A stretch of 64,000 nt of DNA from Amoebophrya sp. A120 (Eukaryota > Protista > Dinoflagellata): contig CAJINV010000008.1 in the NCBI GenBank assembly GCA_905178155.1, positions 3,460,013 through 3,524,012 on the forward strand. Reading direction: 5' to 3'. The translations under genes were made by a program, and so were the position numbers. The notes under the pieces are model-generated. The model was not told the origin of the DNA. It saw nothing but the letters and a program-made list of their open reading frames with translations, and ran no database searches. The first letter of the stretch is position 1, and the number at the start of each line of letters is the position of its first letter. Below are positions 54,511-60,129 of this stretch, piece by piece.

Positions 54511-57500
54511 ATGAACAACATGGAGGGTGGTGGCTCTTCTTCATCGCACCTGCACTATGGTGCGGCCATGGCCCTCGACGTGAAGGAGGATGTCGTCCCT
54601 GAGGGCCACACGGTCGAGCTCCGCGCTGACCACATGGCCGCGAAGCGGGAGCTTTTTAATCGGGAGAGGTCCATGATCACGGCGGACATCCAGGGCAGGC
54701 GGACACTGCAGCTGCCCACCCGCGATGAGGCGGTCCGGGCGAAATTGCGCGACTACGGCGTGCCCATCACGCTCTTCGGCGAAGGACCGTATTTTTTCTT
54801 TGATTTTTTGCAATCCGAGTCGCTCGTCATGTTGCAGTGTGTGAAGAGCGATACTTGATGTCCTCGTAAGTACTGTCTTCTACAACAACTTTCGTCACTG
54901 TTTTGTTTCTTGCATCAAGATCATGTGTGAGAAAAAAAAAATAGATCTTCGATTTCACTGCAGGTATGAGAGGCGCGAGCGTCTGCGCGGCATAATGACC
55001 GGGAGCCGGGACACCACGGAGTCTGGCAAAGTAGATGCGGACGGCGGCGCGCCGCAGGACGACGAGCAGCGAGAACTATTTCTTACCGTCGGCAGCGACC
55101 TCTTGAGGGAGCGAAGAAAAGGAATAGCAAAGTATGATATTATGATAATGATTTTTACGACCAAAAAAAAAACAAGCCGAGTAAAGGGAATTCTTTATCG
55201 AGCATTTTATTTCTACTCCTAAAGTATCTTTACAAGGAAAAATCGCATCAAAATGAAAACCCTGTACTCTAGGTTTTCCTTCGCAGCCGCGCAAGCGCGG
55301 TTGGATCAGGAGCGCGAGGACGAAAAGATTCGCGCCGCGCGGGAAGAGGAGAACGAGAAATTTTGCCAGCACGTCACGGACACCGTCTCCATTGAGCTGT
55401 CGCAGGTCGGCGACACGCGGCCGCTGACGCAAGGCCGTTTTTCAAAGGACGGAAACGTCTTCGCCACGAGTAGCTGGACCGGCCACATAAAACTGTGGAA
55501 CAGCCCGCAGGGCACGCATTTTCGCACCCTGCACTCCGGCGTGGAGACCCGTGCGCACGGGGTCTGTTTCGCCAATCTGGACAACAACACCGCGTTGATG
55601 GATACAGCTGCTGCTGCGTCAACTACAAGCGACAATTCTGCTGGTCCACCGCAGCGACTGCATCACTTGGCGGGCGCCATGGCCAATGGCTCGGTGTGCG
55701 TCTGGCGCAGCGACCAGGAGCTGCCGCTTTGCACACTGAAGGGCCATATGCATTGCAATTATGTCTGGGTCTGGGAGGATGCGAACTTGTCATGCTAAGT
55801 CTGGATCGTACAAAAATTTGTGTTGCATGACTGCCAACAGCTGTCCAGTTTTGAACAAGTTTAGAGGCAGTTTGTCATGCAGGATAGGCATGCTAGGGAC
55901 GTCGCAGAACCTGTCATGCTAGGTCCTGCATTCCAAACCTCATGCGGCATGGAAAATATGCATGAGAAGTTTGCATTCTTCCAGACCCAGACATTTTTAC
56001 ATTTGATAGGCCACGAGGACCGCGTGAACCGGGTCGCCTTCCACCCGTCGGGCGCAAACTTAGTCGCTTCCACCAGTCACGACCAGACCTGGCGGCTTTG
56101 GGACGTGGAACGGCAAACAGAGCTGCTTTGTCAGGAGGGCCATTCCAGTGGTACAGTTTTTTTTGGCAGCATACTGAGAAGTTTTCTTTGCAACCTTTTC
56201 TCGTCTCTGCGCAAAAATCACAAAATGTTTGCATGCTCGTTCACGTTGTAGTTGTTGGTCTAGTTGTCGCGCAAGTGCATAGAAGTTGAGGGTGTGTTGT
56301 AGTTGCAACGAACACCAAAATGATGTTGACTTGATTGCAACATCATTTTTCCGAATCGCACTTCTGCAGGTGTTTACGGACTCGCAATACATCCGGATGG
56401 CAGTCTGCTGTGCACCACCGATCTGGGCGGCATCTGTCGCGTTTGGGACCTCCGAACAGGGCGCACCGTGCTGCCACTGCAGGTAAGGGCGAGATCCTGT
56501 TTTCTTTTCATTTCAATTCACGCTATTGAATTACAATTCAATTCACAATCGAGTTTGCATTTGGTAGTATCCAAATTGGAAGTAGTAGAAATCTCTCATC
56601 GATGGCTGATCTCCACTCCTAATCGGTTTATTTCATCACAGGGCCACTACGAGCAAGTCCTCGCTTGCGACTTTAACCAGCGCGGCTTTCTGCTCGCGAC
56701 AGTACGAAGTGCGAATTTGAACTGGATCATTTCGGGATCTGGAAAGTTGTAAGACCATTCGTGGCCTGTTGTAGTTTGTGCCACTACGTTGCTTGTAGTT
56801 TCTGACTCTGCATGAGGGCGACTACTGAAGCTGAAGGATCCTGGTCGTTGTATATGTAAGTACGCTACTACCTAGTGCTATTCCAGACCCGCGAGCATAA
56901 AGTTCGTTTTTGCACTGGATACTCGGCGAGTGACGACAACACCGTGCGTTTTTGGGACCTGCGGAAGCGCAAGTGCGCCAACACGCTGCAGGCGCTATCA
57001 ACTGTAAAAATGTCTGGGTCTGGAAGATTCTGAAACTTGTCATGTACGTTTTGCATGAGTCATGATGTCTGTGATCCATACCCTAGCAATACAGATTTTT
57101 TGAGGGCTTCTTGATGCCTATTACGCATGACAAATGCCTTCCCAGCGTAGCAAAAATGCCAGCACGTGTACAGATGCGACAGGAGTCTGCTTGCGGACAA
57201 AATAAAACAAGGGGGGAAAGGCAAGAAAGGGCAAAGTGACTGCATGACGAAAATATGGGTAAAACACACGGAAAAGGAAGAGGCCACGACGGTAACAGTA
57301 GAGGAATGGAAAGGGAAAGAAGAGCACATGGCAACAATTGAAACGAGGCAGGATCACCTAAAGACAGAAGTTAGGACAGAAGAACGAAAATTCGTAGCGT
57401 ATTGCAATAACGCCATGAGAGCGATAGAGATGGTGAAGAAGCAGCAACGCGAAGGGAGTGGAGGTGTGTGCGTGTGCTTGCTGGATTACGACGAGATGAA

Positions 57501-60129
57501 AGAGAAAACGCGGGGGCTCCTGCGGAAAGAACAAGGGATAGCGCTAGAGCTGCAGGAGGAAATAGAAAAAGCAGAGGAACAGATCCCGGGATTAATAGTA
57601 GCCAGGCGCTGGGGGAAGCAGAACGCGCCCAAAACCCTCGCAAAGAGAGAAGCACAAGGGGGCTATACAGAAGTGATACCCTTGAAGGTGGCAAACGTAT
57701 CGAAGCACGACGACGAATATGCCGAATGGGTTCAGTACGATTTCGGGGCAAAAAATGTGCCGACAAAACCGGTCTGGGAATGGCCGGAAATGTCAAAAAT
57801 AGAAAGACAAGTGTACATCTACCGGAAGATTATAGGAGATGAAAAGAAAGAAGGGCAGAAAACGGAGAAGGGAAGCGGTGAAGGCGGGGACGGCAGAAAG
57901 AAAGGCAGCGCAGGAGAGAGGAAGGGGAAGGGGGCAGGCAGCAGTGCGAAGGAAAACGCTCGCTGCGGAAAAGGCCCCAAGGGGAACACTGCGCCGATGG
58001 ACACGAGCAGGGAGATAGGCAACGGGTCATTAGCAGAAACAATCAGAAAAATGGTAGAAGGGGAAAAGATAAGAGCACAAAAAGAAGGAAGTGAAATGCT
58101 GCAGAGGGCGCTGGATATAATAGGAAGAGCCACAGACCTACTAGAAACAGCCGAAGACGTTCCACTAGAATCCCGCGCGACGCCGAGCAGCAGCACCAGG
58201 AGAGACGTGCCGGAAATAACAGAAGGGCGAAATGAATCAAAAAAAGAAGAAAAGGACGAAACAGAGGAAGATGCGTATTTCTACCCGGCGCAGGAGTATC
58301 AGGGAAGCCGCCCAGGATACGTGTACAAACTTGGGCATTTTGGCATGGGGTATTATAAGGATCAAGGACCGGAGGAGGCAACGCGGGAGATGTTTCAAAA
58401 AATTACGATAGGGGGGCCAGGAGGCAAACTGCCCAAGAGGGAAGTTTCGAAAGAACAGAAAACAGCGAGCAAAGAAGTTGCAGGAGATGCGACGCGACAT
58501 GAGAAGAACACGCAGCAAGTGCGCCAAGTGCCGGAAAAGGAGGACGAAACAGAAGCGACAGCACGAGAAGCAGCAGAACCAGGTGGAGAAGGGGGATTTG
58601 GAGGACTGAAGAAGAAAATCGCTAAAGATATAAGCGAAACAGAGATGGCAAAACAAAGAAGATAAAAAGGAAGAAAAAAGATTCCCAACGCTGGAGGAGC
58701 TGAACGAGAGGGACCGGAAGCGGGACCGCGAAGAGGCAGCGGAGCGGGAAGAGGAGCGCAAGCGGCAGGAAGAATGGAGATCTATGAAAAGACTGAAGTA
58801 TGGAAATCCATTACAAGATGAGTTAGCCCAGAGGTATAGGAACATGCGCTGAGAAATAATGATGAAGGAAATGTCCAAAAATGATGAAAGAAAGAGAACA
58901 GAGAACGAAACATAAGGACGCATAATGGGGGCACAGTGTTCTGGGCGTCGGCGGAGGGGAGAGGAAGCAGAGGAAAGAAAAAGAAAGAGAAGAAAGAAAG
59001 TGGCTCCCTTGGTCGTCACAGCTAGCCTGCAAGGGCTCCGTTTCCGCCAGCTAAAAGGCACGGCGCTGCTAATCATTTCGTCCTCGCCAGCCGGTAGGCA
59101 CGGCGCTGCTATCCCGTCGTCGTCATTGCGTCCCTTTTACTAGTAGGTGGCAACAGGGTTGCTAAGTTAAAGACTGCGCTAAGGCAGCGCCCCCCTTCCC
59201 CAAGGGGCCCCCCGGGGCGGGCGCGGTGGCGGCTCTGCTAACGCGGAGCTTCAAAGTCCGATTCTACCTATGCGCATAAAAAGGGTGCGCGGAAGCAGGT
59301 CGGTAAAGTGCTTGAAAGGGGCATGCTTTGGGGTTGCCCGGCATCGTGATAGGGTCAACGTGTGTGACCAATAGACCCCCTGTATATCATAGCGCGCAAC
59401 CGACCACAAAAGCAGTAGCGTTTTACGTTTGTAAGAATAACCCCGCAAGGCAACACTGGAGCTCCACCTTGCTCGCGGGCTTGGATGGTAAATCAGGTCA
59501 GCCACATCTAACGCCCACAGGCCGTATACACGCGTAAGAAATCGGAAACGGTTCAGCGGATGCGGTCGGGTGGTACCTGTAGGACGTGGAACGGGTGTCC
59601 ACCTAGGGGTATTGGCAGAGGCTGAATCTGTTCTAACGCCACGGCTTTGGCAGAGGCTAAATCTGTTCTAACGCCACCCTGACAGGAGTCAAATGTCAAA
59701 GCGATACGATACGAGCGTAGCAAAAATGGCACTTCCTTTGGTACTCATGCAATATATACAGATTTTTTTGGAATCCAAACGCAGCATCACAAGTTGCATT
59801 CTTCCAGACCCAGACATTTTTGCATTTGATAGGCGCACAGCAAGTGCATCTCCGAGGTCCAGTTCGACGACACGGGGCGGTACTTTCTCACCTCCAGCTA
59901 CGACAAGACGGTCAAGCTGTGGAACGTGGACGACCGGCACTGCGTGAAGGTCCTGGTTGGCCACGAGGCCCGCGTGATGGGCGCGGCAATCTGTCCCGCG
60001 GTCGGACAGAATTTGAGCAGCAAGGGCCGGGCCTTGTCCGCGCTCGTCGCCTCCGTGGCCTTTGACCGGACGTTCAAGTTTTGGGCGACCAACGGAGGAT
60101 ACATCGAGGACGGGATGGACGTGGATTGA
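54511..60129 (+). CDS. PRPF4: U4/U6 snRNP WD40 protein Prp4
   Basis: Prp4 motif [35 protein letters not shown], then WD40 repeats (GHEDRV..FHPSG, WDLRTG, WDLRKR, GHEARV). GT-AG introns 54790-54963, 55132-55272, 56151-56369, 56483-56641, plus three introners. Confidence 0.93.
55747..56008. mobile_element. Introner, family A
   Basis: TSD GGCCA (55742-55746, 56009-56013); KGH|EDRV in frame. Confidence 0.94.
56703..56921. mobile_element. Decayed family-A-like introner
   Basis: TAC...ATA ends, TCTGGAA/TTCCAGA remnants, flanks GACAG/CTCGG; LAT|ASDDNT in frame. Confidence 0.65.
57166..58852 (+). pseudogene. Purine-rich charged/coiled-coil ORF of the nested element, frameshifted near 58635-58660
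   Basis: 499-codon ORF to 58665; a +1 frame continues [20 protein letters not shown]...RYRNMR* to 58852; strong A/G bias unlike host genes. Confidence 0.6.
59045..59123 (+). repeat. Imperfect 40-bp tandem repeat x2
   Basis: CGCCAGC and AGGCACGGCGCTGCTA each recur at a 40-bp period. Confidence 0.8.
59612..59677 (+). repeat. 31-bp direct repeat x2 (TTGGCAGAGGCTRAATCTGTTCTAACGCCAC)
   Basis: Copies at 59612-59642 and 59647-59677, one mismatch. Confidence 0.9.

Follow-up and report, generated by a model that had tools for sequence, protein, structure and literature searches.

A site-directed retroposon-like insert within an introner of the PRP4 gene of Amoebophrya sp. A120

We analysed a stretch of 64,000 nucleotides from Amoebophrya sp. 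A120 (contig CAJINV010000008.1, positions 3,460,013 to 3,524,012; hereafter the window, whose first letter is position 1), in which the gene for PRP4, a WD40 protein of the U4/U6 small nuclear ribonucleoprotein, carries an introner that is itself split by a retroposon-like insert. The gene lies on the forward strand at 54505..60129, and its identity was supported by a PF08799 match of 29.3 bits (cut-off 25) together with WD40 repeats in the Pfam scan. The modelled exons (up to 54788, then 54964-55131, 55273-55741, 56009-56150, 56370-56482, 56642-56701, 56926-56989 and 59831-60129) form a single open frame with the splice LQA|HSK, and the gene is covered by transcript contigs X3 record 10 and X5 record 14.

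The composite introner, all parts of which were read on the forward strand, is flanked by a 5-bp duplication, GGCGC, at 56991..56995 and 59832..59836. Its left half (56996..57143) belongs to introner family A, begins with the terminal inverted repeat (TIR) TATCAACTGTAAAAATGTCTGGGTCTGG... and contains a GCATGACA box ending 12 nt before the target GCGT. It is followed by the left copy of a 15-bp target-site duplication (57144..57158; target ^GCGTAGCA), the insert itself (57159..59713, 2555 bp, sense to PRP4 and the longest copy seen), the right copy of the duplication (59714..59728) and the right half of the host introner (59729..59831), which ends in the TIR ...CCAGACCCAGACATTTTTGCATTTGATA. The 15-mer AGCGTAGCAAAAATG occurs exactly twice in the window, the duplication can be extended on neither side, and the insert has no second copy there. 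When aligned to the intact, empty family-A introner at 1306..1567 on the forward strand, whose site reads GTGTAGCA, the left half (56996-57156 against 1306-1466) was 83.9% identical and the right half (against 1457-1560) 80% identical, and the TIR arms at 56995-57027 and 59800-59832 were 94% complementary with 2772 nt between them. The insert ends in a microsatellite tail, (CGATA)n, at 59700..59713, reading GCGATACGATACGA; it has no long direct or long terminal repeats (LTRs) and no TIRs, and a Pfam scan of its frames detected no reverse transcriptase (RT), endonuclease or transposase family. The initial annotation of this DNA had described just such a 15-bp duplication around a 2555-bp insert with a CGATA micro-repeat tail and no recognisable RT, endonuclease or transposase, inside a split family-A introner whose halves align with the intact copy, and these points were borne out.

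Amoebophrya introners are described, in the parts of the literature covered, as having ends composed of TAT, seven bases and an A run, as flanked by short direct repeats of 3-5 nt, and as removed from transcripts (PMC7789003, PMC12130899). The PRP4 host introner resembles them in its TAT-starting inverted repeats (TATCAACTGTAAAAA...), its A run and its short GGCGC direct repeat. Elsewhere in the window, at least three adjacent, inverted family-A-like introners at 20967-21875 form outer inverted repeats of 166 nt and 69 nt, and two family-A introners stand back to back, 65 nt apart, at 10092-10686.

Further copies of the element were fetched with a 29-nt pattern taken only from the 3′ end of the insert and blind to the flanks, which yielded six loci (L001 to L006) in another assembly, 90-95% identical to the window insert. 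The results showed that in five of the six the tail gives way to the right half of a family-A introner at GCGTAGCA, the same nucleotide in different introners, so that with the window copy the site ^GCGTAGCA is shared by 6/7 sequenced copies; at the site density of the window, the probability of such agreement by chance is about 1e-19. The right halves at the filled loci measure 103-119 nt from the TIR end, and wherever the left half can be seen (three copies) the site follows the GCATGACA box at a distance of 12 nt. GCGTAGC was found in 6/6 filled sites and in 3/8 alignable empty family-A sites (Fisher p 0.031). In addition, at least four further contigs of set X1 (from 6 of 41 loose-end rows) connect the 3′ end of the element, again at this site, with different family-A introners. 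Together with the five loci, these contigs support the earlier safe-harbour idea, which would have failed had other copies inserted at random. The target core CGTAGC resembles the dinoflagellate spliced leader; with only 6 nt alike, this candidate was dropped, and no dinoflagellate element targeting the spliced leader turned up among the papers listed by the literature search.

The copies also bear the marks of separate insertion events. The target-site duplications measure 15 bp in the window, 17 bp at L002 and 5 bp at L006, each copying its own host sequence, and the outer duplications differ (GGCGC, TGGTA, TTCAA). Insert lengths of 2555, 839, 373 and about 75 bp with one shared 3′ end reveal variable 5′ truncation, and the tail units vary among (CGATA)n, (CAA)n, (CGAAA)n and (CTA)n. 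At the 5′ junction of L002, microhomology is followed by a small fragment of the element, after which the sequence switches back to host DNA from upstream before the element resumes; microhomology with a template jump at the 5′ junction is a pattern known from target-primed insertion. One might instead suppose a single ancestral insertion, after which the whole composite introner multiplied by cut-and-paste transposition and internal deletions, arising later, came to look like 5′ truncation. That history would fit the use of one site in all family-A hosts and the intact TIRs and outer 5-bp duplications, and the 5-bp duplication at L006 could be a deletion scar. However, the inserts of L003 and L004 are 99.7% alike within hosts that are only 77.6% alike, the last 330 bp of the inserts average 95% identity against 81% for the right halves of the hosts, the duplications of the window and of L002 are perfect copies of their own, different hosts, and the tail units differ. 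We therefore regard cut-and-paste spread of a composite as very improbable, since the different duplications, tails and host divergence indicate independent insertions. Variable duplications, 5′ truncation with a shared 3′ end, and a simple-repeat tail unaccompanied by LTRs or TIRs are features of non-LTR-type retroposons, and these hallmarks of target-primed retrotransposition, which the initial annotation had read from the PRP4 copy, recur in the other copies. Accordingly, we are highly confident that these copies belong to a site-directed family moved by target-primed reverse transcription (TPRT).

The removal of the composite introner was assessed with the contigs of sets X3 and X5, which come from one sample that is only guessed to be RNA; those of X1 match the PRP4 flanks without difference. 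The X3 and X5 contigs run along the PRP4 exons and lack three upstream introns. From the piece ending at 56149 to the one starting at 59831 they have 238 letters, and the three exons that restore the WD40 frame total exactly 238, the length of this gap. The figure is one of contig arithmetic, the letters themselves not being displayed among the 24 of 14569 pieces listed. By this arithmetic the mature PRP4 message lacks the 2.8-kb composite intron, the introner being removed in two transcript contigs of one sample that equal the modelled exons, which agrees with the suggestion that excision works with the TIRs 2.8 kb apart. X3 record 12 spans 59444-59810 with 0 differences, and the filled allele is therefore present in that sample; the composite introner is likely to have been spliced from it. 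The register of the cut is ambiguous within the 5-bp duplication and can be read as GC-AG at 56992-59832. A raw RNA run (X10) covered neither PRP4 nor the insert and is likely to come from another strain, and the absence of RNA-contig cover over the open reading frame (ORF) of the element is no evidence about its expression. Two other introns of PRP4 deserve mention. The 224-bp non-canonical intron at 56702-56925, with weak inverted ends (CAGTACGAAGTGCGAA... / ...TTCGTTTTTGCACTG) and no AG acceptor, has to be removed for the 238-letter arithmetic to hold, and a second family-A introner at 55747-56008, in reverse orientation, with the duplication GGCCA and without a GCGTAGC site, is missing from the transcript contigs.

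Analysis of the insert revealed an ORF of about 500 codons that the initial annotation had not reported, so that the element is not a bare non-coding passenger. The ORF (57160..58852, forward strand; first ATG at 57244, stop at 58664-58666 in the window copy) comprises a purine-rich frame of 504 codons at 57151-58665, open from the 5′ junction, and then a frame of 72 codons reaching 58852. In the window copy, an insertion of 4 bp near 58651 splits off the last approximately 65 codons (58634-58852); at L001 no such break occurs, and both parts form one unbroken frame of at least 332 codons. The insertion is absent from one X1 contig and present in another. Comparison of the window copy with L001 over 256 codons gave dS 0.216, dN 0.096 and dN/dS 0.44 (Fisher p 0.001), a substitution pattern that places the ORF under purifying selection. 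Its protein is predicted to have long N-terminal helices and K/E-rich linkers, and no Pfam family scored above cut-off for it. RT together with an apurinic-like (APE) or restriction-like (RLE) endonuclease, which marks an autonomous long interspersed element (LINE) of any clade, including Tx1 and CRE/R2-like, was not detected in the 2555-bp copy by Pfam. The earlier label "non-autonomous" thus stands for this copy, which has no RT or nuclease family; it does not extend beyond it, as the 5′ end may be truncated.

A module of about 30 residues rich in G and Y (F.P...Y.G.RPGYVYK.G..G.GYY.D), encoded at 58279..58368 on the forward strand, is predicted to form a three-stranded sheet. A HMMER search of 1.84 billion proteins returned 45 matches at E<=0.001, all on this module, and the carriers are unrelated protist proteins, none of which (45/45 scanned) has an RT or transposase family. 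Across these matches (P0002-P0046) the residues G, G, G, G, Y, Y and D are invariant, 2-4 copies per protein are frequent, and the carriers include SBNO, PIH1, endonuclease V, ubiquitin and PNISR proteins. A suspected resemblance to WW domains was not supported: the model (predicted local distance difference test score, pLDDT, 78) had no PDB match by Foldseek or VIA-align, the best hit of a PDB profile search had E 0.62, and an Atlas search with the homologue P0004 reached the WW cluster only at TM 0.32. The module is unnamed, has no Pfam family or solved structure, and may deserve a family of its own. No homologues of the ORF were found in viral contigs.

Downstream of the ORF lies a long non-coding 3′ region (58853..59700, forward strand) with a 27-bp pair (59045/59085) and a 31-bp tandem pair (59612/59647). 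These last approximately 850 bp were judged non-coding from single-base indels among the copies, and their identity between the window and L001 (94.4%, 661/700) exceeds that at synonymous sites of the ORF (about 81%; p 2e-7). A structured RNA or ribozyme was not supported here, since Rfam gave 0 matches over 56900-59900 up to E 10, and folding gave z -0.46 with no window below z -2.8. A short interspersed element (SINE) was likewise rejected, as none of these Rfam searches matched a tRNA, 5S, 7SL or small nuclear RNA (snRNA) head and a coding ORF is present. Penelope-like elements carry pseudo-LTR repeats and hammerhead ribozymes; with no long direct repeats, no Rfam ribozyme and no folding signal, that class was set aside as well. 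The 10-bp word GACAGGAGTC at 57178..57187 (forward strand) recurs at 59681-59690 near the 3′ end. Such sharing arose in 0-7 of 400 shuffles (0/400 for 60-nt ends, 5/400 for 100-nt ends) in a post hoc comparison, and may be taken as a weak hint of a native 5′ end. Summed X1 contig depth, which is not copy number, was 26-36 over the unique flanks, rose to 68-404 over the ORF and reached 983-4612 in the final 600 bp, falling in the first 5′ bin of the insert (67.5); such a profile agrees with many short 3′ copies or with a partner that has the 3′ end in common. Three X1 contigs carry a variant sequence at 59140-59169, and from 59050-59140 on the summed depth rises about fivefold to tenfold, possibly reflecting a short abundant subfamily or a partner sharing only the last 600 bp. 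The 3′ end of the element was not found in viral or prokaryote contigs.

As far as the cited sources were covered, the closest functional parallels are Tx1L and Tx2L in Tx1D of Xenopus, and Tx1-Mar and SINEU passengers in Mariner-N4_AMi of crocodilians (PMC6719617, PMC4494074). Like the present element, which occupies a fixed site of a non-autonomous TIR DNA transposon in the window and in 5/6 loci, these are non-LTR retroelements, some of them non-autonomous, that prefer one site in such a transposon and produce target-site duplications of variable length. Unlike the transposons entered by Tx1L and Tx1-Mar, the target here is an introner that lies within coding exons and is cut out of the message, and the host is a protist rather than an animal; this copy moreover has no APE/RT ORF and, compared with SINEU, no snRNA head, so the likeness is a functional one with no sequence relation shown. 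In coding layout, a closer comparison is HAL1 (half-L1), described as a non-autonomous LINE derivative with one non-catalytic ORF that is moved in trans (PMC5753468). The present copy may share this layout, having one non-catalytic ORF behind a 5′ end that is possibly not native. By contrast, its ORF matches no L1 ORF1p family, its tail is a microsatellite instead of poly(A), and its site preference is strong. HeT-A of Drosophila (PMC5537684) is similar in coding layout, a likeness by description that implies no membership, and differs in that the present element enters an internal introner with duplication instead of a chromosome end, has no Gag family match and was not seen in tandem arrays.

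On these grounds we propose that a retroposon family has inserted repeatedly and independently at one introner nucleotide, likely through TPRT by a LINE enzyme supplied in trans, that the enlarged PRP4 introner is likely spliced, and that introners serve as a safe landing site; taken as a whole, this account is the one we consider probable. A LINE-type endonuclease would nick a fixed bond of the bottom strand, 12 nt beyond the GCATGACA box of the introner, and the RT would prime on the 3′ end of the element, slippage writing the tail. A variable second nick and early termination would then give duplications of 5-17 bp, and 5′ truncation or template jumps. The ORF would encode an ORF1-like helper protein, and the conserved 3′ region of about 850 bp would serve the partner enzyme as a handle, an arrangement like that of HAL1 or HeT-A. 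Splicing would depend on the ends of the introner and not on its length, and for this reason the composite would be removed from the filled allele.

Several observations weigh against this account and bear on other explanations. The 5′ junction of the insert is bridged by none of the contigs listed, and at several positions within the insert the letters of the window are matched by no X1 contig, so that some letters of the window copy may be assembly errors, or matching contigs may have been filtered out. Both points could suggest that an unrelated repeat was misassembled into the introner. On the other side, the 15-bp duplication is perfect, X3 record 12 bridges the filled 3′ junction, including the right copy of the duplication, X1 records 2 and 8 bridge both outer junctions of the composite introner, and the full architecture stands on single contigs at L002 and L006 of another assembly, which leaves a misassembly barely conceivable. 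With respect to splicing, a mixed culture that also held an empty PRP4 allele may have been the source of the intron-less contigs. As for the partner enzyme, no long frame with an RT motif was seen in the window or the six loci. Searches with the ORF protein returned no homologue at E<=0.01 or, with the N-terminal 219 residues, at E<=0.1, and a single-sequence structure model of residues 1-247 was poor (pLDDT 47.7), giving no confident fold; the label "ORF1-like" is accordingly drawn from the architecture of the protein.

Also on this side of the balance, at least three X1 contigs leave the element through a (CTA)n tail into a flank found in neither the window nor the loci, and the copy at L005 (about 75 bp, (CGAAA)n tail) lies in another introner family, where the right inverted repeat begins. 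Targeting of the family-A site is hence not absolute. Members of this second family, whose TIR contains CCCTCCCCATATT, lie at 2131-2529 of L005, which received the approximately 75-bp copy, and at 1639-1948 of the window. Such exceptions could be taken to mean that insertion is random and that selection spares the copies landing in introns, as all placed copies lie inside introners, and introners make up to 17% of an Amoebophrya assembly in the part of that report covered (PMC7789003). Selection, however, could not choose one nucleotide of a 262-bp element in 6/7 copies, and GCGTAGC is enriched in filled over empty sites; we consider random insertion highly unlikely.

The last point against our proposal concerns the 5′ end. 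The ORF is open up to the 5′ junction, where 28 stop-free codons have a chance of 0.28, and this fits truncation of a longer element equally well. Since truncation is seen in all other copies whose 5′ junction is visible, the insert could be the 5′-truncated 3′ part of a longer, autonomous introner-targeting LINE, with RT and endonuclease upstream of 57159 and the present ORF as its last ORF or the tail of a long one. Yet the ORF matches no catalytic family, whereas LINEs normally end in an RT ORF; no longer protein shares residues 25-235 (a weak test), and both the drop of X1 depth in the first bin and the 10-bp word common to both ends argue for a native end. We regard the longer LINE as possible although doubtful, and incline towards an ORF-only element moved in trans. 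If the longer LINE were correct, targeting and splicing would stand, and only the movement in trans would fall.

The filled family-A copies point in the same direction as the adjoining open frame in the window, L002, L003 and L006, and probably in L001 (4-5 cases), and the empty copies lie in both orientations relative to frames. No Pfam family was detected in four flanking frames, and gene orientation at those loci is therefore read from open-frame length. This sense bias is no more than a pointer to co-transcription with the host gene, which has been discussed for R2 and SINEU in the part of the literature covered (PMC4494074). A more speculative extension of our proposal, to which we give limited credence, is that the family is an RT-less and promoter-less lineage specialised on introners. 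It would encode a novel helper protein, use the neighbourhood of the GCATGACA box as its address, insert in sense, be transcribed with the host pre-mRNA and be released in the excised introner RNA at no cost in essential genes; with a guild of introner-targeting LINEs as its helpers, it would be a hyperparasite of the transposons that make introns.

The word "nested" occurs 0 times in the main texts of PMC7789003 and PMC12130899, and no introner-aimed retroelement is described in the parts covered. In 12 of the 14 supplementary files of the latter (long cells clipped at 400 characters, no introner sequence file among them), neither the 3′ motif of the insert nor the TIR motif was present. A literature search at title and abstract level, which did not cover Repbase, found no retroelement aimed at introners. 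According to the parts of PMC12130899 covered, some Amoebophrya introner families are filed as non-LTR, and fam2, fam6 and fam16 are listed with matches to LINE peptides, which may be due to nested insertions of the kind seen in PRP4.

In conclusion, the insertions described here are real, site-directed and independent, and their target is a spliced transposon. Retroelements that target transposable elements are already known, and a spliced introner as the target was not found in print within the literature covered. Because the cell splices the target transposon from coding exons, an introner offers a landing site that is transcribed and does no harm while existing in many copies and still expanding. 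Introners can be removed even when the interior is tenfold longer (266 to 2836 bp), and this tolerance constrains the mechanism of non-canonical splicing in Amoebophrya to the ends of the element. Once its partner is known, the family would also lead to a new sequence-specific retrotransposon endonuclease, and the element likely hides inside genes without breaking them.

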